A stretch of 64,000 nucleotides of DNA from positions 13,048 through 77,047 of the forward strand of contig CAZHEA010000003.1 in NCBI GenBank assembly GCA_964531165.1, written 5' to 3'. The notes beneath the pieces were generated by a model, which saw nothing but the letters and a program-made list of their open reading frames with translations, searched no databases and was not told where the DNA came from. Source of the stretch: an uncultured Thiotrichaceae bacterium (GTDB taxonomy: Bacteria > Pseudomonadota > Gammaproteobacteria > SZUA-229). Below, in pieces: positions 30,221-45,975 of the stretch. A program made the position numbers and the translations under genes. The number at the start of each line of letters is the position of its first letter. Position 1 is the first letter of the stretch.

Positions 30221-31132
30221 ATGAAATTTTACCAGAAAATACTCATATCGATATTCGTTACAGTAAATTTATATAGCACTGTCGTATCAGCTAAAGCAAT
30301 AAATGATGAATATAGTGATGTAGACATTAAAACCATTAATCTGGGGCATGGTATTTATATGCTAATGGGTAAGGGTGGAAATATTGGTGTGTCAGTTGGT
30401 GATGATGGCGTATTCATGATTGATGACCAGTTCGCACCACTAACAGAAAAAATTAAACAGGCAATATCTGAAATTACAGATAAACCTATCCGCTTTATGA
30501 TAAATACGCATTGGCATTATGATCATACAGGCGGTAATGAAAATTTAGGGCAGGACGGTGTTGTTATTGTCGCACATGATAATGTATATAAACGTATGAG
30601 TAAGGATGGGTTTATAAAGGCATTTAATAAAAAAATACCGGCGGCAGTCGATGTTGCGCTACCTGTGATCACCTTTAATGATGAAATTACTTTTCATCTT
30701 AATCAGCAGGATATAGAAGTTATTCATCAACAAAATGCCCATACTGACGGTGACAGTATCGTGATTTTTAAATCTGCCAATGTTGTGCATATGGGGGATA
30801 CTTTTTTTAATGGTATGTACCCGTTTATCGATGCTTCAAGTGAAGGCAGCATCGCAGGTATGATTAAGTCGGTAGATTTTGTGCTGACAATGGTTGATGA
30901 CAAAACTAGCATTATACCCGGACATGGTCCATTAGGTGATAAACGCTCACTAAAGGAATACAGGGAAATGTTAGTCACCGTTGAGGCGCGTATGCAAAAG
31001 TTGATGGATGAAGGTAAATCAATGCAACAGATTATAGCGCTTAAACCTAATGCAGACCTGGATAAAAAATGGGGTGCAGGTTTTTTAAACGCTGAAGTAT
31101 TTCTAAAAATATTGAATTCAGCTATGCCTTAA
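30221..31132 (+). CDS. secreted MBL-fold metallo-hydrolase
   Basis: Signal peptide and the HWHYDHTGG metal-binding motif. Confidence 0.85.
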   Translation: MKFYQKILISIFVTVNLYSTVVSAKAINDEYSDVDIKTINLGHGIYMLMGKGGNIGVSVGDDGVFMIDDQFAPLTEKIKQAISEITDKPIRFMINTHWHYDHTGGNENLGQDGVVIVAHDNVYKRMSKDGFIKAFNKKIPAAVDVALPVITFNDEITFHLNQQDIEVIHQQNAHTDGDSIVIFKSANVVHMGDTFFNGMYPFIDASSEGSIAGMIKSVDFVLTMVDDKTSIIPGHGPLGDKRSLKEYREMLVTVEARMQKLMDEGKSMQQIIALKPNADLDKKWGAGFLNAEVFLKILNSAMP

Positions 31133-31184: not shown

Positions 31185-31805
31185 TTAGGTAAGGCTTTTT
31201 AATAGTCTGTTTAATTTTTTTAAGTCCTGAGCGATATCTATATCCTGGTGGATAAACTTATCAGTGGTGATGATCTCTCTGACTGCTGTTGAATGATTTC
31301 TTATTATAGATTTAGCACCAGTGTCTCCAGTGAGTTTGCTAAGTTCTGTGTAGTAACGTTTGCCAAAGTAGACGGGATGGCCGGGTTTACTATTGAATAC
31401 GGGTAAGATAATAGCATTATTAGTGGCATTATTTGCCTTGTCGAGTATGGTTTTATAAGTCTGTTGTTTTATGAGTGGCATATCACCGAGACAGAATAAC
31501 CATCCGTCTTGCTTTGGACAACATTTAACCACATGGGAAATCGTCTTCCCTAACCCGGTGTTTTCTCCGTCAGGTATAATTAAATGCCTGATGTTATATT
31601 TATCAGCCGTTTTTATTAATGTTGAATTGTTTTCATTTATGGCGATCAGTACATTAGGCGTAATATTGTTAATGACCCTGCAGATGTATATAGCCATGGG
31701 TAGACTATTTATTTGTATCCGTGTCTTATCACTATTAAACCGGTTACTTTTACCGGCGGCAAGGACGATGGCCTGAATGTCATTATCAATGTTTTTATCG
31801 GCCAT
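31185..31805 (-). CDS. mocA: MobA-like nucleotidyltransferase, probable molybdenum cofactor cytidylyltransferase
   Basis: AIVLAAGKSNRF N-terminal motif. It overlaps the xdhC-family gene by 11 nt and sits next to a Mo-hydroxylase locus. Confidence 0.65.
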   Translation of the reverse strand: MADKNIDNDIQAIVLAAGKSNRFNSDKTRIQINSLPMAIYICRVINNITPNVLIAINENNSTLIKTADKYNIRHLIIPDGENTGLGKTISHVVKCCPKQDGWLFCLGDMPLIKQQTYKTILDKANNATNNAIILPVFNSKPGHPVYFGKRYYTELSKLTGDTGAKSIIRNHSTAVREIITTDKFIHQDIDIAQDLKKLNRLLKSLT

Positions 31806-32766
31806 TATTTTTTGGTCGGTTTTTCAAGCTAATTAATTCAGCAAAAATCGATATGGCTATTTCTGCTGGTGTTCTACTTGATATGTCAAGTCCAATAGGG
31901 GCGTGAAGTTTATTGATGTCATTGTCGTTTAAATCTAAATATTGTAGTCGTTTAATTCTTGCGGTATTACTCTTTTTCGAACCGATGGCACCAACATAAA
32001 ACAGATCAAGTTCGAGTGCCGTCATTAATGCCATATCGTCTAGCTTAGGGTCATGACTTAGCGAGAGTACAATGCTGAATGTATCGTTTGCAAATTTTCT
32101 TACCGCATCATCCGGCATCAGTCGAGTCAGGTTGCAATCCTGATTTTGCCATGCAAGTCTATAGTCTTCCCTGGGCTCGCAAATGGTAAGCTTAAATTCA
32201 AGCATTTGTGCAAGCGGTAGAATATAACTGGCAATTTGATTGGCGCCAATCACTAAAATTTTCCAGGCTGGTCCGAAGGTTTTAATCAGTGTTATGTCGT
32301 CATAGAAAAAATCTTCGGTATTTTTATCGGCTATATCTAATGATGAGGTTTGGTTTTGTATATCGAGTATGCGGCAAACCCGATTACCCGCATTTAATAA
32401 ATCAAGAATACGTATAAATTGTTCTCTATATGTGATTTTTTCAACACAGATAACTAATGATGCGCCACAGGGAATATTGATCTTAATGTTTTCTTCATTG
32501 GCAGAGTAATGTAAAGTTTTTATATATGAATCATCGAAAAAACCGTGCTTATGCTTGAGCTGCAGATCATCTTCAATGCAGCCACCTGAAACCGATCCGT
32601 AAATGTGGTTATGCTGGCTAATTATCATTAAAGACCCGGCTGGACGTGCAGATGATCCCCAGGTTTTAACGACTGTGCATAGTAATAGATATGAGTCTGA
32701 GCCCGAGGCTAGTAACTCAATTGACTTTTTGATGATTTCTTTATCTGCGTATTCGGTAGCTACCAT
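31795..32766 (-). CDS. xdhC: XdhC/CoxI-family Moco insertion accessory protein
   Basis: GSVSGGCIEDD motif and a Rossmann-like central region ILVIGANQIA. Confidence 0.8.
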   Translation of the reverse strand: MVATEYADKEIIKKSIELLASGSDSYLLLCTVVKTWGSSARPAGSLMIISQHNHIYGSVSGGCIEDDLQLKHKHGFFDDSYIKTLHYSANEENIKINIPCGASLVICVEKITYREQFIRILDLLNAGNRVCRILDIQNQTSSLDIADKNTEDFFYDDITLIKTFGPAWKILVIGANQIASYILPLAQMLEFKLTICEPREDYRLAWQNQDCNLTRLMPDDAVRKFANDTFSIVLSLSHDPKLDDMALMTALELDLFYVGAIGSKKSNTARIKRLQYLDLNDNDINKLHAPIGLDISSRTPAEIAISIFAELISLKNRPKNNGR

Positions 32767-33025
32767 CGCATGTCTGCCATTTTATCCTGTATTTATACGA
32801 TTGATTCTAATGTTGAAGCTGGGTATTATCGATATTCACATGAATTTAACTAATGAAATATATGTATCCATGTGGTAATTTAGTTTAAGGATTCCAGGTG
32901 TTCATTTAAGAATATAAAGCAATTTAATACTTAAATACATAATATCTTAACAACGGATTTTAATGTTAGTCATAATCGCTTAATGCCTGGATAATTTTCA
33001 TAACTCAGTATACATAATCATTATT

Positions 33026-33511
33026 ATGCAAACTACAAATACATATACCTTTAGCGTAAATAAACAGTCTTATACTCTCGAATTGCCCGCTGATATTCCA
33101 TTGTTATGGGTGCTGCGCGATTATATAAAGTTGCCCGGAACTAAATACGGCTGCGGTATTGGTGCATGCGGGGCTTGTATGGTATTGGTTTCAGATCAAT
33201 TGACACAATCTTGTTTGATTACGGCTGAGCAATTCAAAGATAAAAATATTACAACCATTGAAGGTTTAGCTAATGATAGTCTGCATAAAGTTCAGCAGGC
33301 CTGGCTGGATAATGGCGTTGTTCAATGTGGTTATTGCCAGTCTGGACAAATCATGGCAGCAGTGTCATTAATGAATTTGAAAACGCCACCTGATCATCTT
33401 CAAATAAAAAGCGTAATGTCGAAAGTTCTGTGTCGTTGTGGTACTTATCCGCGTATTAATAAAGCGCTTGTTAATTTACTTGAGTCAGATGAAAGTAATG
33501 CCAATGAATAA
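33026..33511 (+). CDS. (2Fe-2S)-binding small subunit of a xanthine-oxidase-family Mo hydroxylase (IorA type)
   Basis: The CGIGACGAC and QCGYCQSGQIM / CRCGTY cysteine clusters. Confidence 0.9.
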   Translation: MQTTNTYTFSVNKQSYTLELPADIPLLWVLRDYIKLPGTKYGCGIGACGACMVLVSDQLTQSCLITAEQFKDKNITTIEGLANDSLHKVQQAWLDNGVVQCGYCQSGQIMAAVSLMNLKTPPDHLQIKSVMSKVLCRCGTYPRINKALVNLLESDESNANE

Positions 33512-35663
33512 AATTGATAGAAGAGAGTTTATAAAGTTATCTGTAACGGGTAGTGCTTTTCTGGCTATCGGTTTAAACGTGTCACTGGCACAATCATCAA
33601 CTCCCTCGACAGACAAAAAAGTAAACTTTTCATCCAGTTTGTGGATTAAAATTGATATAGATAATAAATGTGTACTCAATATACCCGAGTCAGAAATGGG
33701 GCAGGGTATCTATACTGGGCTGGCGACATTGTTGGCTGAAGAACTGGACCTTAACTGGTCTGATGTAACAGTTGAGCGGGCGCCGTCTTTAAATGTTTAT
33801 GGTTATCAGTCAACAGGTGGTAGTACCAGTATTAAAAAACGCTGGATTAAATTCAGAGAAATAGGTGCATTAGCACGTCAAATGCTAGTTCAGGCAGCAG
33901 CTAAAAAGTGGGCCATTCCTGTCAATAAGTGCTACACAGAAAATGCAACGGTGTATAGCTCAGTTAATCATCAAAGCATTAAGTATTCCGAGCTTATTGA
34001 GCTGGCTAATCAGTTAACCATACCTGACAATGCACTACTTAAAGATAACCATCAGTTTAAACTAATTGGTAAAACTACAGCACGTATTGATTCCCTTGAT
34101 AAGGTGAAAGGTAAAGCTGTATTCGGCATTGACGTGCAGTTAGCGAATATGATATTTGCGACAACGCTACACCCACCTGTTTTTGGTGCAACGGTAGGCA
34201 AGATTAATGACAGTAAAGCGATTGAGATTCACGGTGTTATAAAAATATTCAAAATAGACAATGCTGTCGCAGTTGTTGCAGATAATAGCTGGAGTGCATT
34301 TAAGGCAGCTAAACTATTAGAGATAGAGTGGCAAAACAACCATAGCGTAATCGATAGTGCATTGATTCGAGAAAAATCATTAGCCGCATTAAAATCACCG
34401 TCATCTATTGCCAGTGAAAAAGGTAATGTTTTTTCTGAAAAATATAAGAATGAAGTGTCGGCAATCTATTCAGCACCATTTCAGGCACATGCTACGATGG
34501 AACCAATGAATTGTACGGCACATATTCATGATGGAGTTTGTGAAATATGGGCGCCGACACAATCACCGAGCAGAGCTAAATCTGCAGCTAAAAAACATTA
34601 TTACAATACTGCAGATCGTATTTATGCAAAGGCCAGGTCATTGCTTAAAGCCGATGAAGTTGAAGATATTATAGTTAATACCACTTTCTCCGGAGGTGGT
34701 TTTGGACGTCGATTGCAGCAGGATTTTGTTGCTGAAGCAGTTCAAATTGCTAAGCGGTTCGAGCACCCGGTAAAATTAATCTGGAGTCGTGAAGAAGATG
34801 TACAACATGATTTTTACCGACCGGTTGCCTATACCAGCTTAAAAGCGAATTTAGACAGTAGTGGCTATCCGTCATCACTTGTTCACCATCTGGCCTCGCC
34901 ATCGATAAAAGAGAGTTTATGGCCAGGGGCTTTATCGAAAAAAAATGCTATTGATTCGGTCGCTGTGGATGGCGCTTCAAATTCGGCTTATGATATTGAT
35001 AACCATAAAGTACAATATTCGCATGTTGAAACACCAGTACCATTGGGTTTCTGGCGTTCTGTGGGTTCATCTATTAATGCTTTTCATCTGGAGTGTTTTA
35101 TTGATGAGTTAGCACATAAAGCAGGTATCGATAGCCTGCTTTATCGGCAGGAATTATTGCATTTAAATCCTCGTTTATTACAGACATTAACTCGTGTAAG
35201 TGAAATGTCAGGCTGGAAAAAAGACCCAAATGCTTATTATGGAATAGCTTGTCATACATCTTATGGAAGCCATGTTTCACAGGTTGCAAAAGTGATAACG
35301 CGCAACGATGAGCTGATAATAGATCATGTTTATTGTGTCATTGACTGTGGTTTTGTTGTTAATCCGGATATTGTTAAGGCACAGTTGGAAGGCAGTATTA
35401 TATTTGGTTTAAGCGCGCTGTTTAGTGAAATAAAGATATCTAAAGGCAAGGTTCAACAAAGTAATTTCCATGATTTTCCTATCTTAACTTTCCAGCAATC
35501 ACCCTCTATTAGCAGTGAAATTATCAATAGTCCAGAAGACCCGGGCGGGGTAGGTGAGCCTGGTGTACCGCCCGCAATTCCGGCAGTTTTAAATGCTATG
35601 TTTTCTGCTACCGGCAAGAGAATTCGTCATCTACCAGTCCAAGCTTCTGATTTTAGTTTATAA
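33504..35663 (+). CDS. molybdopterin-binding large subunit (IorB / aldehyde oxidase beta type) with Tat-like signal
   Basis: MNKIDRREFIKLSVTGSAFLAIG twin-arginine leader, plus GGGFGRR and GEPGVPP motifs. The start overlaps the iorA-type stop. The ORF-track start at 33438 is probably an over-extension. Confidence 0.85.
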   Translation: MNKIDRREFIKLSVTGSAFLAIGLNVSLAQSSTPSTDKKVNFSSSLWIKIDIDNKCVLNIPESEMGQGIYTGLATLLAEELDLNWSDVTVERAPSLNVYGYQSTGGSTSIKKRWIKFREIGALARQMLVQAAAKKWAIPVNKCYTENATVYSSVNHQSIKYSELIELANQLTIPDNALLKDNHQFKLIGKTTARIDSLDKVKGKAVFGIDVQLANMIFATTLHPPVFGATVGKINDSKAIEIHGVIKIFKIDNAVAVVADNSWSAFKAAKLLEIEWQNNHSVIDSALIREKSLAALKSPSSIASEKGNVFSEKYKNEVSAIYSAPFQAHATMEPMNCTAHIHDGVCEIWAPTQSPSRAKSAAKKHYYNTADRIYAKARSLLKADEVEDIIVNTTFSGGGFGRRLQQDFVAEAVQIAKRFEHPVKLIWSREEDVQHDFYRPVAYTSLKANLDSSGYPSSLVHHLASPSIKESLWPGALSKKNAIDSVAVDGASNSAYDIDNHKVQYSHVETPVPLGFWRSVGSSINAFHLECFIDELAHKAGIDSLLYRQELLHLNPRLLQTLTRVSEMSGWKKDPNAYYGIACHTSYGSHVSQVAKVITRNDELIIDHVYCVIDCGFVVNPDIVKAQLEGSIIFGLSALFSEIKISKGKVQQSNFHDFPILTFQQSPSISSEIINSPEDPGGVGEPGVPPAIPAVLNAMFSATGKRIRHLPVQASDFSL

Positions 35664-35665
35664 AC

Positions 35666-36358
35666 ATGCAGTCTCAATTGCTTGATTCGGTCAATACAGT
35701 GCAAACCCCTGAAGGTATTGATATTCATCTAAGGCTTGCGGGAATATGGCCAAGAAGTGTTGCGTGGTTAATTGATGTTGTAATACGTAGTGTAGTGTAT
35801 GTTGCACTGGCTATACTCACACGATTTTTTGGTGATTTTGGTGCGGGCTTGATGTTAATTGCATTCTTTTTTATGGAATGGTTTTACCCGGTTTTATTCG
35901 AAGTATTTAATAATGGTATGACACCGGGTAAAAAATATCTAAAAATACAGGTGCTAAATAGTGATGGTACACCGATTGGCTGGTCTGCATCATTACTGCG
36001 TAATATTTTGCGGACGGTTGACTTTCTACCGTTTTTTTATGGGCTTGGTTTTATATCAATGTTAATGAATAATCGATTTCAAAGGCTTGGTGATCTTGCT
36101 GCAGACACCATTGTCGTTTATGACAAAGGCATATCAGGTATACAGGTTATTCCACAATATGCGCATTTAAAAGCTGACTATCCTTTAAGTTTACAAGAGC
36201 AGCAATCTATTATTCGTTATGCTGAACGCTGTAGTCAATTATCTGATGAGCGTTTACAGGAGCTTGCAGAGTTCTTAAATTCTGTTGATGTTAAGGATCA
36301 TAAAATGACTAAAGAAAAGCTTCTCGGTATCGCTAATGGATTAGTAGGTCATCGATGA
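35666..36358 (+). CDS. RDD-family membrane protein
   Basis: RSVAWLIDVVIR ... RLGDLAADTIVV (R-D-D pattern) and about 3 TM helices. It starts 2 nt after the iorB-type stop. Confidence 0.75.
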   Translation: MQSQLLDSVNTVQTPEGIDIHLRLAGIWPRSVAWLIDVVIRSVVYVALAILTRFFGDFGAGLMLIAFFFMEWFYPVLFEVFNNGMTPGKKYLKIQVLNSDGTPIGWSASLLRNILRTVDFLPFFYGLGFISMLMNNRFQRLGDLAADTIVVYDKGISGIQVIPQYAHLKADYPLSLQEQQSIIRYAERCSQLSDERLQELAEFLNSVDVKDHKMTKEKLLGIANGLVGHR

Positions 36359-37371
36359 AGCAGGCTGATTTTGAAAAAAAATATTCAGTATTCTGGCTCG
36401 AAATTGAAAACAGTTTATCTATTCACGTTAATCGCACTATGACAGATGAAGCGACGAAGGGAAAAATATTTAAACGCGGACGTTACGCACAAGGACCGGC
36501 AGATGATTTTCCAGAAAAATACCGATTAATTTGTCATCATTTATCGCTGGCGCGTTCGAGACATTACAGCCCATTACTGGTTGAACGACTCGAACGCCTG
36601 GTTATCCATGCGCATCAGGTTTTCTATAAACGTAAATCACATTTAATTTCATCAGTTTTAATCTATTTTACTTCTGGTTTTGCACAATCTATTCGAACAG
36701 AGTGGCGTTGGGTATTATTATCCGGCGTGCTGTTTTTTGGTACCTTATCTGCCATGTTAATTACATTGCAATTTTACCCGGATATGGTCTATACAGTTAT
36801 TTCAGCTGAACAATTATCATCGATGGAGTCGATGTACAATCCGCAATTGCGGGAAATGGGCCGAGAGCGTGGAGCCGGTAGTGATTTTCAAATGTTTGGA
36901 TATTATATTTTCAATAATACCAGTATAGGATTGAAAACGTTTGCCAGTGGTTTGTTGTTAGGTATAGGGACCGTGTTGGCGTTGATCTTTAATGGTTTAA
37001 CTATCGGTGGAGTCGCTGGTTATTTAACCTATATTGGATATGGTTCTACTTTTTGGCCGTTTGTGTCAGGCCATAGTGCACTTGAGTTAACAGCAATTGT
37101 ATTTTCTGGTGCCGCTGGTTTTAAACTTGCATTTTCTATTATTAGTCCGGGTAGAAAACATCGTTTATTGTCATTAAAAGACAGTGCAAAAGACGCTGTA
37201 TATATGATGTATGGTGTTGTAGTGATGTTCGTAATGGCGGCATTCGTAGAAGCTTACTGGTCTTCTATGGCAGGTGTTCCGTCATTAATAAAATACAGTG
37301 TTGGAATTATAAGCTGGTTATTACTATTGGCATATTTTGTTTTTTCAGGTCGTCAGTATGCAACTCGATAA
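36355..37371 (+). CDS. SpoIIM-like (DUF95) integral membrane protein
   Basis: NNTSIGLKTFASGLLLG and GHSALELTAIVFSGAAG motifs, with about 5-6 TM helices. There is an ATGA overlap with the RDD gene. Confidence 0.7.
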   Translation: MKQADFEKKYSVFWLEIENSLSIHVNRTMTDEATKGKIFKRGRYAQGPADDFPEKYRLICHHLSLARSRHYSPLLVERLERLVIHAHQVFYKRKSHLISSVLIYFTSGFAQSIRTEWRWVLLSGVLFFGTLSAMLITLQFYPDMVYTVISAEQLSSMESMYNPQLREMGRERGAGSDFQMFGYYIFNNTSIGLKTFASGLLLGIGTVLALIFNGLTIGGVAGYLTYIGYGSTFWPFVSGHSALELTAIVFSGAAGFKLAFSIISPGRKHRLLSLKDSAKDAVYMMYGVVVMFVMAAFVEAYWSSMAGVPSLIKYSVGIISWLLLLAYFVFSGRQYATR

Positions 37372-38158
37372 AATCATTATCAGGTTACGTCAGCGTAGCG
37401 CATGGGAGGCAATGGATCTTGGGGTCATGCTTATGCGTCGCCTGTGGCCCGTTCTGCTTTTACCCTGGCTTATTATGATGTCCTTTGTTTTAGTATTTGT
37501 GCTATTTACTGAAATTAATGGCTTTGTATATATTGGCAGCTTTATTATGTGGCTTAGTAAGCCAATATATGAAAGTATGATTTTATATGTTTTAAGTCGT
37601 GGCGTATTTGGTGACTACCAATCCACATCGAGTGTTTATTCTTCAATGGGTAAGTGGATAAAAACAGGTTTATTAACCACGGTTTTTTTCTGGAGATTTT
37701 CACCTTCACGATCATTTAATATGGCTGTTCATCAGCTTGAAGGCCTATCAGGTAATAAACGCAAACAACGCTTAAGAATATTGCACAATGTTAAAGGCTC
37801 TCACTCTTCCTGGCTAACTGTTATAGGTGTTTTCTTTGAGTATATTTTCACATTAACTTTATATGTTCTGGTTTTTTATATTGCACCGGATACTTCTGTA
37901 GAGTATATAAATGATTTAGTTGATAACCCTGAAGATCCACTGGTGTGGATTGTAATGGGGTCAATAATATATGCAATTACACTTTTTGTACTCGAGCCAT
38001 TTTATGTGGCCTCAGGTTTTGTGCTGTATCTTAACAGAAGAACTCAATTAGAGGGCTGGGACATAGAACTGGATTTTAAAAAAATAGCTCAGAGAATTCA
38101 ATCGCAATATCATAAGCCGTCTGTTATACCGTCATCGCATAATGATTTTAAAAAATGA
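37358..38158 (+). CDS. membrane protein of unknown family (about four TM helices)
   Basis: ATG 37358 overlaps the upstream stop by 14 nt. The ORF track starts at TTG 37337. I recognise no motif. Confidence 0.6.
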   Translation: MQLDKIIIRLRQRSAWEAMDLGVMLMRRLWPVLLLPWLIMMSFVLVFVLFTEINGFVYIGSFIMWLSKPIYESMILYVLSRGVFGDYQSTSSVYSSMGKWIKTGLLTTVFFWRFSPSRSFNMAVHQLEGLSGNKRKQRLRILHNVKGSHSSWLTVIGVFFEYIFTLTLYVLVFYIAPDTSVEYINDLVDNPEDPLVWIVMGSIIYAITLFVLEPFYVASGFVLYLNRRTQLEGWDIELDFKKIAQRIQSQYHKPSVIPSSHNDFKK

Positions 38159-39066
38159 TAGTGCATCATAGTAAAATTCGTTTATCTATATTAACAATTA
38201 AGATGTGTAGTGTGTCGTTATTGTTTCTATTACTTATAACGCTACCGGTGTTTTCACTAATGGCGGATAATCAGGAGACGGTCTCAATGAGTAGTCGACC
38301 TGTATTAGCCGATGAAAGGCTGCCGATTTCTGAGTCAAAAACTATTATTGATGATATAAAACTCAAACAACCTTTTATCAATATAGAGGATGAAGTTGTC
38401 TGGGATTTTGAAGGTACAGAAGATAGTGAAGACAGTGAGATAGACGAAGAAACAAACGATAGTGTTGGATTGAGCTGGTTAAGCGATGTAATAAACTTTA
38501 TGGCTATTGTCATTGAGTTGGTTTTATGGATGATACCTTTGCTGGCGCTATTTTATATATATAAATATAGAGAATACTGGCTGGGTATTTTTCACAAACA
38601 ACCTAAAAAAATCAAAAAGCAGTTATTGCCGGAAACCCTGTTCGGTCTTGATATGAAAGCAGATAGCTTACCGGATAATATTGAAACAACAGCTTTTGAA
38701 TTATGGTCCAGTCATCACTATAGAGAAGCCGTAAGTTTATTATACCGTGGATCACTTCTGAGTTTGTTTGAACGATATCGTTTTTCATTGCCCTCTGGTG
38801 CAACGGAGCAGGACTGTATTCGATACCTGCAGACATCCATAGATAGTACAGATCAATCAGCGGGTAAAGATGAAATGCTATTTAAAGTTACACGCTTTAA
38901 ACAGATAACGGATGTGTGGATAGCGATTGCTTATGCACATAAAATACCTGAAAAAAGTGCATTTAATGAAATATGTAGTGACTGGAACAATGTGTTTTTT
39001 AATAGCAGAAATATAAAGAAAAAAAGTGCTGATCATCATAGTCAGCAGGTAAATAATGATGAGTAA
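38155..39066 (+). CDS. membrane protein with acidic stretch and DUF4129-like C-terminal domain
   Basis: ATGA overlap with the upstream gene. N-terminal hydrophobic segment, EDSEDSEIDEETNDS, then a TM helix. The C-terminal W..HHYREAVSLLYRGSLLSL...GATEQDCIRYL resembles DUF4129. Confidence 0.6.
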   Translation: MIVHHSKIRLSILTIKMCSVSLLFLLLITLPVFSLMADNQETVSMSSRPVLADERLPISESKTIIDDIKLKQPFINIEDEVVWDFEGTEDSEDSEIDEETNDSVGLSWLSDVINFMAIVIELVLWMIPLLALFYIYKYREYWLGIFHKQPKKIKKQLLPETLFGLDMKADSLPDNIETTAFELWSSHHYREAVSLLYRGSLLSLFERYRFSLPSGATEQDCIRYLQTSIDSTDQSAGKDEMLFKVTRFKQITDVWIAIAYAHKIPEKSAFNEICSDWNNVFFNSRNIKKKSADHHSQQVNNDE

Positions 39067-40231
39067 CAGTCGTATATCATCAGATGTAGTGCTTTATACT
39101 TTACTGATTATAATTGTAATTATGTGCGGCTACTGGCTATCTATTAATCTTAGTTATCATACTGTTAAAAAAGATAAAGGCTATCAGGGTGAAGCTCTTA
39201 CTAACCGCTATCTGGCGGCAGAATACTTTCTTTTACGCATGGGGCAGGATGCTGAAAAAGTGACGTTATTTGATGCTAAAGCGCTTCAGCTTAAGCGTAA
39301 TGATACCTTATTTATTCCGAGTATACGTCTGGCTTTTGACAGCAGACGATCTGAACAGATACTTGACTGGGTTAGAGATGGCGGGCACTTAATTATTACC
39401 GGCCGAGTTGAGGCAGAAAATGATGCCAGTCAACGGGATTACATTCTTGAGTATGCAGGCCTGAGTGTTGAGCGGCAGGTATTGATCGAGGGATCTACTC
39501 AGGATGAGACACCTGTTAATGTATCAAGTGTTGATGATGTGCTTTTATTAGTCGACTTTGATGACTATCTGGTGATAACCAAAAGACCTGATTTTGATTT
39601 TGAAGTTACCTGGGTTATTAAAGATGAAGATAGAATTCATGGTTTGCAAATTTTACTTGGTGACGGACGTTTGACATTATTGTCTGATGTCAGGTTGTTT
39701 GATAATGATTATATTGATAAATATGATCATGCTGCATTTCTGTATTTATTAGCAACAACTCAAACAGAAAAACTGCATTCAGGGGTTTTTAAATATTCAT
39801 TATATGAAGATCAGTTAACATTGCTGCAGTGGCTATGGAAAAATGCACAGTTATTTGTAATGTCCTGTATTTTATTATTTACAGTCGTCTTATGGATGCT
39901 GATGCCTCGCTTTGGACCTTTGATAAAAAATAGTGACCCAGTTAGAAGGCGATTTCTGGATCATTTACATGCATCGGGAAACTATCATTGGCGACAGGGT
40001 AGCTATGCGTTTTTATTAACGGATGTAAAACAGTTGTTGAATCAGCAGGTACAAATGAAATATCCGCAATGGTCAAGTTTAAACCGTCAGGAGAAAATTT
40101 TACATTTTGCTGATATTAGTCAGATAGACTCAAAAGATATTGAAAAAGCACTTTTTGATACTGAAATTAACCATGTAAGTGGTTTTATAAGTACCATGAA
40201 AATCCTGGAAAAATTGAGGAAAAGTTTATGA
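39056..40231 (+). CDS. DUF4350-like membrane-anchored protein
   Basis: N-terminal TM, the DGGHLIITG motif region and a second TM (LFVMSCILLFTVVLWMLM). It overlaps the upstream gene by 11 nt. Confidence 0.6.
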   Translation: MMSNSRISSDVVLYTLLIIIVIMCGYWLSINLSYHTVKKDKGYQGEALTNRYLAAEYFLLRMGQDAEKVTLFDAKALQLKRNDTLFIPSIRLAFDSRRSEQILDWVRDGGHLIITGRVEAENDASQRDYILEYAGLSVERQVLIEGSTQDETPVNVSSVDDVLLLVDFDDYLVITKRPDFDFEVTWVIKDEDRIHGLQILLGDGRLTLLSDVRLFDNDYIDKYDHAAFLYLLATTQTEKLHSGVFKYSLYEDQLTLLQWLWKNAQLFVMSCILLFTVVLWMLMPRFGPLIKNSDPVRRRFLDHLHASGNYHWRQGSYAFLLTDVKQLLNQQVQMKYPQWSSLNRQEKILHFADISQIDSKDIEKALFDTEINHVSGFISTMKILEKLRKSL

Positions 40232-41196
40232 ACGAAGTTACTACGCAGGATGATGTTAAAAGTATCCAGCAGTTTATACAACACATCAACAGCGTGTTTA
40301 TCGGTCAGCAGGAAACCGTAGAGCAGGTTGTCATTGCGATGTTGGCTGCGGGCCATATTCTTATTGAAGGTGTACCGGGTTTAGGGAAAACCCTGCTGGT
40401 ACGCTTATTAGCAAAACTGATTAATGGTGAATATGCACGTATTCAGTTTACTCCTGATTTAATGCCCGGCGATATTACAGGTCATGTAATGTTTGATAAC
40501 CAGTCTAATAAGTTTCGAATACGCCGGGGGCCCGTTTTTGCAAATTTATTATTGGCGGATGAAATTAATCGCGCACCTGCAAAAACTCAGTCCGCACTAC
40601 TGGAAGTAATGCAGGAGCATCAAGTGACGTTAGAGGGGAAATCATTACCTGTTCCCGAACCCTATCTGGTGATGGCGACCCAAAATCCTCTTGAACATGA
40701 GGGAACATACCCTTTGCCGGAGGCGCAATTAGATCGATTTATTATTAAAATCAAAATTGATTATCCGGATGCAGATAATGAGCTGTTAATGATTAAATCT
40801 GTAACCAGTAATCAGGTGGGAGATCAGTTTTCTATCGATAATATTGCTCAAGCATTTTCAACGAATGATATCGTACGTATGCAAAAGTCTGTCACCGAGG
40901 TATCAATTGACGATAAAGTGTCAGCCTATGCTGTTGCTATCGTCAGGAAAACCCGTGACTGGTCTGGTATTTCAAATGGTGCTGGGCCTAGAGGTGGTAT
41001 TGCGATTATACGTTGTGCCCGGGCCCGTGCTTTTATGCGGGGTCGTGATTTTGTTACTCCGGAGGATATAAAGCAGGTTGCTCTGGCGGTGTTGAGGCAT
41101 CGTATTATTTTATCACCTGAAATTGAGCTTGAGGGCATGGATGAGGATCAAATTTTAAATGCATTACTTGAACAAGTGCCGGCGCCACGTGAGTAA
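40228..41196 (+). CDS. MoxR-family AAA+ ATPase
   Basis: Walker A GVPGLGKT and Walker B LLADEINRA, plus ATQNP and the C-terminal lid. ATGA overlap with the upstream gene. Confidence 0.9.
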   Translation: MNEVTTQDDVKSIQQFIQHINSVFIGQQETVEQVVIAMLAAGHILIEGVPGLGKTLLVRLLAKLINGEYARIQFTPDLMPGDITGHVMFDNQSNKFRIRRGPVFANLLLADEINRAPAKTQSALLEVMQEHQVTLEGKSLPVPEPYLVMATQNPLEHEGTYPLPEAQLDRFIIKIKIDYPDADNELLMIKSVTSNQVGDQFSIDNIAQAFSTNDIVRMQKSVTEVSIDDKVSAYAVAIVRKTRDWSGISNGAGPRGGIAIIRCARARAFMRGRDFVTPEDIKQVALAVLRHRIILSPEIELEGMDEDQILNALLEQVPAPRE

Positions 41197-41219
41197 TCAC
41201 GGGTTATTGATATATAAAA

Positions 41220-42536
41220 ATGATTAAATTTAAACCCGCTGAGCGAACGCTATACATAGTTACCGGATTAACTATTTTTGCTCTGTTATCGGCGATATGG
41301 ACGACACTGGATATTCTTTGGTTATTAATTTCAGGCTGTTTTATTTTCGTTGCTTTTATTGACTTATGGTTTGCATATAAAGCGCCGTTACCATTGGTTA
41401 AACGAACACTTGCCGGGTCATTATCCGTCGGCGTCGTTACAGATGTACTCCTTACTGTTAAAAATACCAGTCAACGTAAAATTATAATTGATATTTTTGA
41501 TCACTTTCAGAATAATTCAGATGTCACCGGCATGCCCAGGCGTTTATTGCTCGATGTAAACGAAGTTGCTGAATTAACTTATTATTTAAAGCCACTGATG
41601 CGAGGCGAGTTAACAATCAGGCAGTTGGAGTGTCAGTTGTTGTCGCCACTTGGTTTATGGCATTATCTACACTTGCTTCCACTGGAGAGTCATTCGCGGG
41701 TATATCCTAACTATGCGCCGGTTATTAAGTATGCTTTTCTGGCGACTGAAAATCATTTAAGCATGATGGGAATACTAAAACACCGGCGTCGTGGCCAGGG
41801 CATGGATTTTCATCAGTTAAGAGAGTTCAGAGAGGGTGACAGCATAAAGCAAATTGACTGGAAGGCGTCATCCAGAATGCGAAAAATGATTGCGCGAGAA
41901 TATCAGGATGAACGAGATCAGCAGATTATTGTGATGTTGGATTGTGGCCATAGAATGCTTGCACAGGATGGCGAACTTTCGCATTTTGATTACAGTTTAA
42001 ATGCACTTTTACTGCTGTCGTACGTTGCATTGAAGCAGGGAGATTCGATTGGTGTCTCAACGTTCAGTAATGAGTCCCCGCGCTGGATTAAACCGGTCAA
42101 AGGTGTAGTAAATTTAAAATTATTATTGAACGGTATTTATGATTTGCAGCCGGGCTCAGCGGCACCTGATTATTCCAGTGGTGCTAAGGATCTAATCTTA
42201 CGTCAACGTAAGCGATCACTGGTTCTGATACTGACCAACTTACGGGATGACGACTCTGATGATTTAATTTCAGCAGTACAAATACTTAAAAAGCATCATA
42301 AGGTGGTGGTTGCAAGTCTTCAGGAACGGGCTTTAGTAGACAGGCTTGAGCAACCGATTCAAAGTCTAGATGATGCACTATGTGTTGCAGCAACGCATTC
42401 ATACCAGCTTAAACGTAATTTACTGGTTCAGCAGTTACGTAATCATGGAATTAATACGCTGGATGTACTGCCTGAAAAGCTGGCGTTATCTTTGACCAAT
42501 ACATACCTTGATTTGAAGTCATGTGGTCAAATTTAA
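41220..42536 (+). CDS. DUF58 (VWA-like) protein, MoxR partner, with two N-terminal TM helices
   Basis: LREFREGDSIKQIDWKASSRMRKMIAREYQDERDQ and VMLDCGHRM motifs. Confidence 0.85.
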   Translation: MIKFKPAERTLYIVTGLTIFALLSAIWTTLDILWLLISGCFIFVAFIDLWFAYKAPLPLVKRTLAGSLSVGVVTDVLLTVKNTSQRKIIIDIFDHFQNNSDVTGMPRRLLLDVNEVAELTYYLKPLMRGELTIRQLECQLLSPLGLWHYLHLLPLESHSRVYPNYAPVIKYAFLATENHLSMMGILKHRRRGQGMDFHQLREFREGDSIKQIDWKASSRMRKMIAREYQDERDQQIIVMLDCGHRMLAQDGELSHFDYSLNALLLLSYVALKQGDSIGVSTFSNESPRWIKPVKGVVNLKLLLNGIYDLQPGSAAPDYSSGAKDLILRQRKRSLVLILTNLRDDDSDDLISAVQILKKHHKVVVASLQERALVDRLEQPIQSLDDALCVAATHSYQLKRNLLVQQLRNHGINTLDVLPEKLALSLTNTYLDLKSCGQI

Positions 42537-42838: not shown

Positions 42839-44674
42839 ATGAATAGTAAGAGTCACTCTGATCAGATCAGCTGGTCACATATCATATCGACAGCTAAATC
42901 CTATAAACGAAGCCTCTGGCAAGCTAACCTGATTGCAATTCTGGCGGCAGTTTTGAGTGCCCCGGTACCGATGTTAATGCCGTTATTGGTTGATGAAGTG
43001 TTGTTAAATAAACCGGGGTTTCTAGTTCAGTTTGTCAGCGCTATTTTCCCGGATGACTGGTTAGGCCCTGCATTTTATATTGTTGCTATCATGTTACTGA
43101 CGATAATGTTGCGGCTGTTATCAATGCTACTTGCTGTCTTTCAGACCTATCAATTCACCTTAATCGCAAAACAGATTACCTATAAAATACGCCACAAGTT
43201 GCTGACAAAGCTGCAGTATGTGTCGATGGCTGAGTATGAAACACTGGGCAGTGGAACAGTCGCTTCGCATCTGGTGACTGATGTTGAGGCAATTGATACG
43301 TTTCTTGGCAGTGCATTAAGCAAGTTTATTGTTGCCGTATTATCGATTATTGGTGTAGCGATTATACTATTGTGGATTCACTGGCAGCTGGCATTATTTA
43401 TATTAATAATGAATCCACTGGTTATTTATTTTACAACAGTGCTGGGCCGTCGAGTTAAACATTTAAAAGCGCGTGAAAATTCCGCATTCGAAATATTTCA
43501 GCAGTCTTTAAGTGAGACGCTGGCTGCGATTCATCAAATACGTTCGGCTAACCGTGAACGTCATTATTTACAGCGTGTGATTGATAAGGCACGAAATATT
43601 AAAACCCACTCAGCAACTTTTAGCTGGAAGAGTGATGCGGCAAATCGAGTGTCTTTCTTTGTGTTTTTAATGGGTTTTGAGGTGTTTCGAGCCGTTAGCA
43701 TGCTGATGGTTATTTTCTCTGACTTATCAATCGGACAGATGTTTGCTGTATATGCCTATCTCTGGTTTATGATGGCGCCGGTACAGGAAATATTAAGCAT
43801 TCAATACAGTTACTATTCTGCAAATGCAGCAATGGGACGATTAAATACATTGTTGAAGCTCGATACAGAACCACAGTATGAACATAACTGTAACCCGTTT
43901 AATAATCAGAGGACGATTGGTTTACGCGTAGAAAATATTAAATTCAGTTATGGTAAAAGCCGTAGTCTGCAAAATAGTGATGATTTTGATAATGTAGAAC
44001 CTGTTTTAAACGGTTTGTCGCTTTCGATAAAAGCCGGCGAAAAAGTTGCCATTGTAGGTGCCAGCGGTGGTGGTAAATCAACTTTAGTACAAATTCTATT
44101 GGGCATGTATACGCCTCAGCAGGGAGAGGTCTACTTTGGCGATGTCAATGTTAAAGATATAGGCCTGGATATTGTGCGTGAAAATGTAGCTACTGTATTA
44201 CAGCATCCCGCCTTATTTAATGACACTGTCCGTAATAATATCAGTCTCGGTAAAGATTATGATGATGGTGAATTGTGGAATGCCTTAGAGGTTGCACAGC
44301 TTAAATCTACTGTTGAAGATTTGCCGCAGCAGTTAAATACTATCGTTGGTCAGAACGGGGTTAGATTTTCCGGTGGTCAGCGTCAGCGGCTAGCGGTTGC
44401 ACGTCTGGTTTTATCACAGCCTAAAATTGTTATTTTAGATGAGGCAACTTCAGCCTTAGACACTAAAACTGAGTCTGATCTACATTCGGCTATGCGTGAT
44501 TTTTTACAGGACCGGACAACATTAATTATTGCGCACAGGTTAAGTGCAGTTAAGCAGGCCGACCGTGTTCTGGTGTTTGATGATGGACAGGTTATTGATG
44601 AAGGTGTGCATGAAGAAATGGTACAAAGAGACGGGGTATATAAGCAGCTCTATGGAAGCCATGTTGAGACGTAG
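42839..44674 (+). CDS. ABC exporter, fused permease/ATPase (MsbA-like paralogue, substrate unknown)
   Basis: Six-TM N-terminal half. Walker A GASGGGKST, signature FSGGQRQR and Walker B ILDEATSALD. Confidence 0.9.
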   Translation: MNSKSHSDQISWSHIISTAKSYKRSLWQANLIAILAAVLSAPVPMLMPLLVDEVLLNKPGFLVQFVSAIFPDDWLGPAFYIVAIMLLTIMLRLLSMLLAVFQTYQFTLIAKQITYKIRHKLLTKLQYVSMAEYETLGSGTVASHLVTDVEAIDTFLGSALSKFIVAVLSIIGVAIILLWIHWQLALFILIMNPLVIYFTTVLGRRVKHLKARENSAFEIFQQSLSETLAAIHQIRSANRERHYLQRVIDKARNIKTHSATFSWKSDAANRVSFFVFLMGFEVFRAVSMLMVIFSDLSIGQMFAVYAYLWFMMAPVQEILSIQYSYYSANAAMGRLNTLLKLDTEPQYEHNCNPFNNQRTIGLRVENIKFSYGKSRSLQNSDDFDNVEPVLNGLSLSIKAGEKVAIVGASGGGKSTLVQILLGMYTPQQGEVYFGDVNVKDIGLDIVRENVATVLQHPALFNDTVRNNISLGKDYDDGELWNALEVAQLKSTVEDLPQQLNTIVGQNGVRFSGGQRQRLAVARLVLSQPKIVILDEATSALDTKTESDLHSAMRDFLQDRTTLIIAHRLSAVKQADRVLVFDDGQVIDEGVHEEMVQRDGVYKQLYGSHVET

Positions 44675-44776
44675 GTGTAAGGATATTTTAATAATGTTAT
44701 TTTCGTGTATAGTTTTTAATTAAAAGCTATATTCAGATTATTCAGGATTCGGCTATATTTATAACGAGAAAAATTG

Positions 44777-45262
44777 ATGAATACGATTCGTATAGGCCAT
44801 GGTTATGATGTGCATGCTTTTGAAACGGGCGAGCATATTATTCTCGGTGGCGTTAGCATTGCTTACCATAGAAAATTTAAAGCGCATTCTGATGGTGATG
44901 TATTAATCCATGCTGTATGCGATGCTTTATTGGGTGCACTGGCCCTCGGTGATATTGGGCATCACTTCCCTGATACGGATGATGCGTTTAAAGGCATCAA
45001 TAGTCGGGAATTATTAAAAAAGGTCTATAAATTAATTAATGCTTCTGGTTATGTTTTGTTGAATCTAGATACGACTATTGTTGCTGAAGCACCTAAAATG
45101 GCTTCTCATATCATGCAAATGCGAGCTAATCTAGCCGATGATCTGAGTGTTGATATTAAGCAGATAAATGTAAAAGCCACAACCACTGAAAAATTGGGGT
45201 TTATCGGCAGACAGGAGGGTATAGCTGTACATTCAGTTTGCTTAGTTGATAAAACAGATTAA
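44777..45262 (+). CDS. ispF: 2-C-methyl-D-erythritol 2,4-cyclodiphosphate synthase
   Basis: [10 protein letters not shown] and [10 protein letters not shown] motifs. The ORF track begins one codon earlier at TTG 44774. Confidence 0.95.
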
Positions 45263-45375
45263 TTGTTGTGGATAATCAAATAATCACCATAAATAACCAG
45301 TCAACTTCACATAAAACCTTAATATCTTATATACTAAATTGTAATGATAAATGAATATGCACAATACATGTATAT

Positions 45376-45975
45376 ATGCTGATCTATATTCACGGGTTTA
45401 ACAGTTCACCAGAATCTTATAAAGCAAGTCTGCTTCAATCCTTCGCGCAAAAAATAAATATGCCCGATATGCTGGAAATACCGGCGTTGTCTTACGAGCC
45501 TGTTCAGGCAATGGACCAGTTATTACAACTTATTCGCGCTTATCAGGCACATAATGGCATGCGCCCACTGTGTTTTATCGGTAGCTCGCTGGGTGGTTAT
45601 TATGCAACCTGGCTAGCTGAAAAGTTTGAAAGCCGGGTCGTGCTAATTAATCCGGTGGTTAAGCCACTGGAGCTGTTTGAAGATTATATTGGTTTTAACA
45701 AAAACCTTTACAGTGGTGAAGAGTACCAGCTAACACTCGAGCATCTTGATCAGCTGATGAAGTATCAGGTAAATGAAATTACAAAACCGGACCGATATCT
45801 GCTGATGTTGCAAAGTGGAGATGATGTTCTGGATTACAACCTGGCGTTAGAAAAATATGCTGCGGTGCCTTCTATTGTTGAAGAAGGTGGTGGGCATGAG
45901 TTTACGGAGTTCGAGCGTCATCTTGAAACAGTATTAGCTTTTTGCGGTATTAACTGTTTAAAAGCTTATTCCTAG
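45376..45975 (+). CDS. yqiA: YqiA-like alpha/beta-hydrolase esterase (UPF0227)
   Basis: IYIHGFNSSP and GSSLGG nucleophile elbow in a 199-aa product. Confidence 0.75.
   Translation: MLIYIHGFNSSPESYKASLLQSFAQKINMPDMLEIPALSYEPVQAMDQLLQLIRAYQAHNGMRPLCFIGSSLGGYYATWLAEKFESRVVLINPVVKPLELFEDYIGFNKNLYSGEEYQLTLEHLDQLMKYQVNEITKPDRYLLMLQSGDDVLDYNLALEKYAAVPSIVEEGGGHEFTEFERHLETVLAFCGINCLKAYS

Follow-up and report, generated by a model that had tools for sequence, protein, structure and literature searches.

A widespread MoxR-DUF58 gene cluster with a candidate role in the cell envelope and a split membrane subunit in an uncultured Thiotrichaceae bacterium

Seven consecutive open reading frames (ORFs) on the plus strand, at positions 35666-42536 of a 64,000-nucleotide (nt) stretch of DNA from an uncultured Thiotrichaceae bacterium (GenBank assembly GCA_964531165.1, contig CAZHEA010000003.1; the whole stretch is called the window below), bring together the genes for five membrane proteins, a MoxR-family AAA+ ATPase and a DUF58 protein. 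The reading put forward here, tentatively and with somewhat less than even confidence, is that these genes would encode an inner-membrane MoxR-DUF58 remodelling complex whose clients are its own co-encoded membrane subunits and whose output lies in the cell envelope. The cluster is not a previously unseen one: it is widespread, routinely annotated, partly discussed in the literature and functionally uncharacterised. What is new is the evidence that genes 3 and 4 correspond to one fused protein, which takes the count from seven genes to six components, together with an unclassified family of four transmembrane helices (4-TM), a degenerate metal ion-dependent adhesion site (MIDAS) in the DUF58 protein and a quantified co-conservation of the whole set.

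Central to this reading is the coherence of the cluster. The seven same-strand ORFs were recovered at the coordinates given in the first-pass annotation of the window, and recomputing the junctions from gene 1 to gene 7 returned the values it had listed: -4 nt (ATGA, 36355), -14 nt (37358), -4 nt (38155), -11 nt (39056), -4 nt (40228) and +23 nt (41220), with an ATGA overlap at three of the six. The junctions are comparably tight in the relatives L004 and L005. In a scan of one genome per species, relatives of gene 3 were found at at least 598 places, and the best 80 of these were surveyed by iterative profile searches of all ORFs in the loci; they include Pseudomonas, Metapseudomonas, Stutzerimonas, Thiothrix, Cellvibrio, Sulfuriferula and Burkholderiales. 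Among them, 59 Gamma- and Betaproteobacterial loci had 2.5 kb or more of upstream and 6.5 kb or more of downstream sequence, and 59/59 of these are complete, with all families present, on one strand, in the order RDD, SpoIIM, gene 3+4 protein, DUF4350, MoxR, DUF58. The tight junctions and this co-conservation bear out the earlier proposal of one tightly coupled module, and the membrane genes do not vary freely. Apparent anomalies of gene order in L019 and L037 were rejected as ORF over-extension in high-GC DNA. Outside Pseudomonas-level synteny, no eighth gene family is consistently adjacent in the surveyed loci, and therefore the clients would most simply be the co-encoded proteins.

Further, two of the seven genes are parts of one protein. 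Neither gene 3 (37358..38158, +; a 4-TM domain protein of 266 amino acids, aa) nor gene 4 (38155..39066, +) matches any Pfam or NCBIfam family, and both were placed by alignment to a 497-aa protein, P0039, encoded between the SpoIIM and DUF4350 genes of a related metagenomic contig. Gene 3 aligns to residues 1-245 of P0039 (33% identity, E 4e-45) and gene 4 to residues 265-496 (29% identity, E 4e-29). An exhaustive phmmer search with gene 3 returned 2002 representative clusters at E<=1e-3, and 131 of the 150 best relatives are longer than 430 aa (about 500 aa), with the gene-3 domain at the N-terminus and both halves in one chain. Judging from these alignments, genes 3 and 4 encode the two halves of what most relatives make as a single chain, and the cluster therefore comprises six functional components rather than seven. 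A neighbour-joining tree of the gene-3 domain confines the split form to the window and L001, L004, L005 and L006; since the window shares it with four related assemblies, the arrangement is specific to this lineage and cannot be put down to a sequencing error. Apparent splits in two other loci were rejected, that in L046 as a truncation at a contig end and that in L048 as a product of a fragmented assembly. What was first described as a seven-gene module is thus a six-gene module in which, in this lineage, one gene is split.

Within the gene-3 domain 24 columns are invariant, among them those of RPRxPWEAxDLG and EPFYVAxGFxLYLNRRTxLEGWDIE. Its AlphaFold2 model is confident (predicted local distance difference test, pLDDT, 87; predicted template modelling score, pTM, 0.80), and a Foldseek search of this model against the PDB gave no significant fold (best E 1.2). 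Counts of Lys and Arg indicate an N-in/C-in topology, the conserved cytoplasmic parts being the basic 80-151 loop and a C-terminal amphipathic helix. Gene 3 represents an unclassified 4-TM domain family.

Gene 4 has the layout of a signal-anchor TM helix, an acidic and variable periplasmic loop of about 70 aa, a second helix (TM2) and a cytoplasmic DUF4129-like helical domain, and its conservation is confined to TM2 and the C-terminal domain. An acidic stretch and a DUF4129-like C-terminus had both been singled out at first; the stretch, EDSEDSEIDEETNDS, is not conserved among orthologues, whereas the DUF4129-like assignment survives by transitive homology only. A direct hmmscan of gene 4 against DUF4129 (PF13559) gave no match at E<=0.1. 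The gene is called DUF4129-like because its fused homologues match PF13559, at the extreme C-terminus in 7/10 of those compared (P0039 and 6/9 others) and above the cut-off in three; residues 427-493 of P0039 score 29.4 bits (cut-off 24.8). In a structural model of the fused protein, the C-terminal helices at 402-496 are predicted at a block pLDDT of 93-98, and the DUF4129 domain forms a small helical bundle. Foldseek matched this domain only to HEPN-like four-helix bundles, non-significantly (E 0.5-1.8), and for want of an Rx4-6H motif it is not called HEPN. A PDB sequence search with the fused-protein profile returned nothing significant. On the opposite strand within gene 4 lies an 80-aa ORF (38271-38513, -), Ser-rich and of low complexity, which is almost certainly a shadow ORF.

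The proposed engine of the complex is well preserved. Gene 6 (40228..41196, +; 322 aa, cytoplasmic) matches AAA_3 (E 3.5e-63, 211.8 bits, cut-off 27) and AAA_lid_2 (E 8e-24, 83.5 bits, cut-off 22.7). Its Walker A, Walker B, sensor 1, arginine finger and sensor 2 are all intact, and the motifs GVPGLGKT (Walker A) and LLADEINRA (Walker B), which the first-pass annotation had pointed out, are present and, together with ATQNP, LDRF and GPRG, kept in 72 orthologues; the MoxR protein is accordingly well conserved and predicted to be catalytically intact. The closest solved structure, 2R44 (7e-81), is itself uncharacterised. An adjacent DUF58 gene is the Snider and Houry criterion for MoxR proteins of the MRP type, as cited in PMC12067865, and gene 6 has such a neighbour in gene 7, which starts 23 nt downstream.

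Gene 7 (41220..42536, +; 438 aa) matches DUF58 (PF01882; E 4e-22, 79 bits, cut-off 23.4), conserves the family signature GDxxRxIDWKAxxR, and consists of an N-terminal hairpin of two TM helices followed by a cytoplasmic vWA-like domain, which scores 17.4 bits against VWA_2, below the cut-off of 27. A PDB sequence search with gene 7 found no relative. The canonical MIDAS motif DxSxS is not present in this protein; the position reads D-C-G-H-R, and D241-C-G243-x-R245-M is conserved in 68 orthologues. DUF58 proteins of the same type in Alphaproteobacteria have D-[ST]-G here, and the pattern across the cluster type is D-[CST]-G-x-x; of two Bat-type DUF58 proteins, one has D-I-S-A-S, the canonical DxSxS, and the other D-x-S-S-A. 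With D-C-G in place of DxSxS, a metal-mediated MIDAS contact appears unlikely in gene 7.

The remaining subunits are membrane proteins whose families, like those of the ATPase and its partner, were assigned by hmmscan at curated cut-offs, with weak matches listed to E<=0.1. The five names given at first, RDD, SpoIIM, DUF4350, MoxR and DUF58, all clear these cut-offs, and hydropathy and Lys/Arg counts agree with the membrane topologies proposed with them. Gene 1 (35666..36358, +; 230 aa, about three TM helices) matches RDD (PF06271; E 2e-23, 83.5 bits, cut-off 24.1); an N-terminal TPEG motif is conserved in it, and its C-terminus is extended by about 90 aa. Gene 2 (36355..37371, +; 338 aa), a polytopic protein, matches SpoIIM (PF01944; E 1e-30, 106.9 bits, cut-off 26.9) and places a Lys/Arg-rich N-terminal domain of about 115 aa, presumably cytoplasmic, ahead of five to six TM helices. 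Precomputed Pfam annotation lists PF28475 (DUF8413) on the N-terminal domain of the gene 2 homologues in L001, L004 and L005, and no match to PF28475 was reported for the corresponding region of the window gene (36355-36700) with the local Pfam copy. PDB sequence searches found no relative of gene 1 or of gene 2. Gene 5 (39056..40231, +) matches DUF4350 (PF14258; E 4e-12, 47.3 bits, cut-off 30.4); in it, two TM helices bracket a periplasmic domain of some 235 aa, and the second is followed by about 105 aa of conserved cytoplasmic tail (RFGP...RR...H). In a profile search for distant DUF4350 relatives, Pseudomonas orthologues dominate, with no new phyla among the matches listed. Across the cluster, orthologue conservation maps read together with the Lys/Arg topology show conservation concentrated in the TM helices and predicted cytoplasmic parts, the periplasmic parts being variable.

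The set recurs beyond the complete loci. On a Catenovulum adriaticum chromid, RefSeq names the genes as RDD family protein, stage II sporulation protein M, hypothetical protein, DUF4350, MoxR family ATPase and DUF58. Replicons of Rhizobium leguminosarum and Paracoccus aminovorans carry, in this order, DUF805, DUF4129-like, DUF4350, MoxR, DUF58, SpoIIM and RDD genes; the same families thus recur in a permuted order, and the core set therefore survives rearrangement. The DUF4129-like protein is standalone there, as is gene 4, at about 250 aa, and the gene-3 domain was not detected at these two loci. One or two DUF805 membrane-protein genes lie directly upstream of the DUF4129-like gene in the Rhizobium/Paracoccus loci L088 (3447-4548) and L090 (4111-4551), and because DUF805 occupies the position that the gene-3 domain has in Gammaproteobacteria, it may be an analogous component. 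A haloarchaeal plasmid encodes DUF4129, DUF7269, DUF58 and DUF7519, with MoxR on the opposite strand. Two related river-sediment Pseudomonadota metagenome-assembled genomes, L035 (4509-5837) and L059 (5417-6541), carry the genes from RDD/SpoIIM through MoxR; in L059 the ORF after MoxR has no family assignment and is cut off by the contig end. A fragmented copy of the cluster is also found in an actinobacterium, on the Curtobacterium flaccumfaciens plasmid pCff1 (L087; NZ_CP045288.2, 1775-8734), with an RDD gene, short AAA ATPase fragments and an unannotated DUF58-like stretch 44.5% identical to gene 7. Its neighbours, DUF2167, glutathionylspermidine synthase and DUF1190, look gammaproteobacterial, which suggests a horizontal transfer followed by decay, or an assembly problem.

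How such a set of proteins might work together can be sketched as follows. The six functional components, encoded by seven genes here since one is split, would form one inner-membrane complex in which the DUF58 protein, by its two-TM hairpin and vWA-like domain, tethers a MoxR hexamer to the cytoplasmic side of the membrane; the vWA-like domain would serve as an adaptor whose binding of partners is probably independent of metal. ATP hydrolysis would then assemble or conformationally switch the co-encoded membrane partners by way of their conserved cytoplasmic parts, namely, in the gene 3+4 protein, the DUF4129 domain and the basic loop, in the DUF4350 protein, the tail after the TM helix, and in the SpoIIM-like protein, the N-terminal domain, and the change could be passed on to the periplasmic DUF4350 domain and to a membrane scaffold of the SpoIIM-like and RDD proteins. 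The output is most likely to be envelope maintenance or remodelling, and not the maturation of a soluble metalloenzyme. SpoIIM serves as a membrane scaffold for peptidoglycan hydrolases in Bacillus (PMC5898192), and in Mycobacterium tuberculosis the SpoIIM-like Rv3694c and the RDD protein Rv3695 co-purified with the divisome-associated Rv0954, beside PbpA and LamA (PMC8093794). The membrane-anchored AAA+ remodelling machine proposed in the first-pass annotation is consistent with an intact MoxR protein, a membrane-anchored DUF58 protein and several membrane proteins, although the module is not the undescribed system for which it was named a candidate.

Several observations weigh against this envelope remodelling complex. 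The link to the envelope rests on one co-immunoprecipitation list and the SpoIIM analogy. In L035 there is no adjacent DUF58 gene, and L059 is possibly likewise. The inter-domain arrangement in the fused-protein model is moderately confident (pTM 0.64), the comparison of the MIDAS position with other DUF58 types comprises two Bat-type sequences and one archaeal sequence, and the survey outside Proteobacteria consists of one haloarchaeal plasmid and a literature table. A bolder form of the proposal, which we regard as doubtful, is that of a self-contained and widespread envelope machine in which the AAA+ ring would transmit force across the inner membrane through a dedicated membrane domain outside any Pfam family and without a recognisable relative among solved structures, with its own membrane subunits rather than a soluble enzyme as clients and a mechanism outside the characterised MoxR systems.

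Other functions for the cluster have to be weighed against its contents. A secretion or surface-translocation apparatus, in which the GldG/GIFT-like periplasmic domain of DUF4350 and the membrane proteins would act as a MoxR-powered conduit or motor, is unlikely, though the most probable of the alternatives. Makarova, Galperin and Koonin (2015) predicted that archaeal arCOG01314 (DUF4350), MoxR (COG0714) and a vWA protein constitute a "novel secretion or membrane remodeling complex", reported HHpred similarity of DUF4350 to GldG, and noted bacterial SpoIIM homologues beside vWA and COG0714 genes (PMC5898192). The DUF4350 profile weakly touches the GIFT domain of IFT52 in the PDB (E 0.1), in agreement with the GldG similarity of that study. 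However, the cluster has no outer-membrane component, cargo-like gene or conserved neighbour, it is devoid of the S-layer and Ig-domain proteins of the archaeal model, and the periplasmic domain of DUF4350 is its least conserved part. Moreover, no MoxR-type ATPase is known to act as a translocase.

An ion- or solute-handling stress module, with the RDD protein as effector and its assembly controlled by MoxR and DUF58, would be in keeping with the presence of the RDD family in all of the complete loci (59/59); a Halobacillus RDD protein is reported to be a cation/proton antiporter, and MoxR operons are generally linked to stress tolerance, for example in Riemerella. Such a module would, however, leave the SpoIIM-like, DUF4350 and gene 3+4 proteins unexplained, and since Pfam and NCBIfam searches found no transporter signature in any component, it is quite improbable.

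A chaperone for cofactor insertion or metalloenzyme maturation, comparable to CoxD, NorQ/NorD and CbbQ/CbbO, draws its appeal from the genes upstream. MoxR relatives are known to mature metalloenzymes, and the candidate client here would be an adjacent IorAB-type molybdenum hydroxylase. Between a metallo-beta-lactamase-fold gene (30221-31132) and gene 1 sits a molybdoenzyme block (31185-35663) with an IorA-like 2Fe-2S subunit (33026-33511), an IorB-like Mo-binding subunit (ending at 35663) and two minus-strand ORFs (31185-31805 and 31795-32766), known in the window by position alone and MobA-like and XdhC-like by synteny with L004, where the IorA/IorB pair is likewise adjacent to the cluster with XdhC-like and MobA-like genes nearby. 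The stop codon of the IorB-like gene lies 2 nt short of gene 1, and the transcription unit may therefore begin further upstream in this genome. Promoter-like and terminator-like sites occurred at chance level in a scan, and an Rfam search across 30-45 kb of the window gave no match. Neither L001 nor L005, however, has the IorAB/XdhC block, although the flanking genes of either side are retained there, and it is missing from every other locus surveyed; because of this absence despite otherwise kept synteny, the molybdoenzyme genes are best regarded as a lineage-specific insertion outside the module, and IorAB was rejected as a client. It is also hard to see what part the membrane proteins, which make up five or six of the components, would play in the maturation of a soluble enzyme. 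As the DUF58 protein has no canonical DxSxS MIDAS motif and the molybdoenzyme adjacency is lineage-specific, a cofactor-insertion role is disfavoured and very improbable, and with it the metal-insertion option that had been offered at first alongside remodelling.

An equally small probability attaches to a biological-conflict system, anti-phage or thresholding, of the MoxR-vWA type described by Kaur, Burroughs, Iyer and Aravind, which would draw on the occurrence of MoxR-vWA pairs in conflict systems (cited in PMC12067865) and on a match of gene 6 to bpMoxR (PF20030; E 3.5e-13): the score of gene 6 against AAA_3 is far above that against bpMoxR, neither a beta-propeller nor an effector domain is present, and the setting (ABC transporter, ispF) is chromosomal and stably syntenic across relatives, not a variable island. 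PADLOC defence models gave only weak, P-loop-level matches to the N-terminus of the ATPase (best 3e-5) and one marginal match for gene 1 (0.007), no more than noise, and a defence system was rejected on this account. Downstream of gene 7, an MsbA-like ABC exporter, ispF and a UPF0227 hydrolase (42839-45975) are followed, by comparison with relatives, by a GH3 glycosidase and an MscS-type channel. This gene order is syntenic in L001, L004 and L005, and the cluster therefore has a stable setting on the chromosome rather than lying in a mobile island. There are no tRNA or tmRNA genes within the 64-kb window, and GC skew is positive across all of it, consistent with a single replichore arm.

If the cluster does encode an envelope remodelling complex, it would speak to a broader question. 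Few AAA+ systems of prokaryotes are as widespread as the MoxR ATPases with their DUF58/vWA partners, and yet, according to a 2025 review, the client and mechanism of the large MRP/DUF58 branch are still unknown, as is what DUF58 proteins do and how they relate to MoxR (PMC12067865). Clusters of this type lend themselves unusually well to a test, for their fixed, co-conserved partner set names candidate clients and a gene fusion links two of the partners. Their carriers include cultivable organisms that should be genetically tractable, such as Stutzerimonas stutzeri, Pseudomonas resinovorans, P. citronellolis, Cellvibrio and Rhizobium plasmids, and, by annotation, mycobacteria. The window copy itself would add one point, that the 4TM-DUF4129 protein could function as two polypeptides, and is otherwise one more copy. 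No functional study of the cluster was found in the literature searched, which covers few subscription journals; in this respect the earlier expectation was borne out. The further suggestion of an undescribed system does not hold, given the at least 598 loci with gene 3 relatives, the RefSeq annotation of such clusters, the Mycobacterium table of PMC8191103 and the prediction in PMC5898192.

Compared with known systems, the cluster shares with the archaeal arCOG01314 system a core trio of membrane-anchored DUF4350, MoxR and a vWA/DUF58-type protein, which genes 5, 6 and 7 provide. The archaeal system, itself a computational prediction only, has S-layer-like and Ig-domain proteins (arCOG02884 etc.), domains that do not occur in genes 1-4, and is without the RDD, SpoIIM and gene 3+4 proteins of the window cluster. 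In Mycobacterium, DUF4350 (Rv3691), MoxR (Rv3692), DUF58 (Rv3693), SpoIIM (Rv3694c) and RDD (Rv3695) stand together in a published table, and the homologues of Rv3689-Rv3695, including the membrane protein Rv3689, change expression together in M. chelonae (PMC8191103). Five families are thus common to the Rv3689-Rv3695 locus (MoxR2 = Rv3692) and the window cluster, by RefSeq annotation alone; gene order and orientation differ, and that locus is functionally uncharacterised too. The SpoIIM of the Bacillus SpoIID-SpoIIM-SpoIIP engulfment complex belongs to the same Pfam family as gene 2 (PF01944). However, the lineages that host window-type clusters do not form spores, gene 2 carries an additional domain at its N-terminus (annotated as DUF8413 in relatives), and no SpoIID or SpoIIP partner lies in or beside the cluster in any surveyed locus, no genome-wide search having been made.

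Bat operons (MoxR-DUF58-BatA-BatB-BatC-BatD) resemble the window layout in that an MRP-type MoxR is followed by DUF58 and accompanied by membrane proteins. Such operons, in Bacteroides (aerotolerance), Borrelia (BB0170-0176), Riemerella and Rhizobium (RL3499-3502), are generally linked to stress tolerance and envelope integrity. They differ in having true VWA proteins, TPR proteins and BatD (loci L091 and L092), none of which the window cluster contains, and in being without the RDD, SpoIIM, DUF4129 and DUF4350 proteins that it does. The layout of the fused gene 3+4 protein recurs in the MoxR-DUF58-transglutaminase/DUF4129 trios, of the B. subtilis yeaC-yeaD-yebA type and in the bifidobacterial PFNA cluster, in which a polytopic protein likewise ends in a TM helix and a cytoplasmic DUF4129 domain; YebA is a membrane protein with a transglutaminase domain, a TM helix and DUF4129. 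The PFNA cluster is described in PMC12067865. Unlike these trios, the window cluster has no transglutaminase core, its N-terminal 4-TM domain is without a Pfam family or PDB fold match, and DUF4350, SpoIIM and RDD are its extra components.

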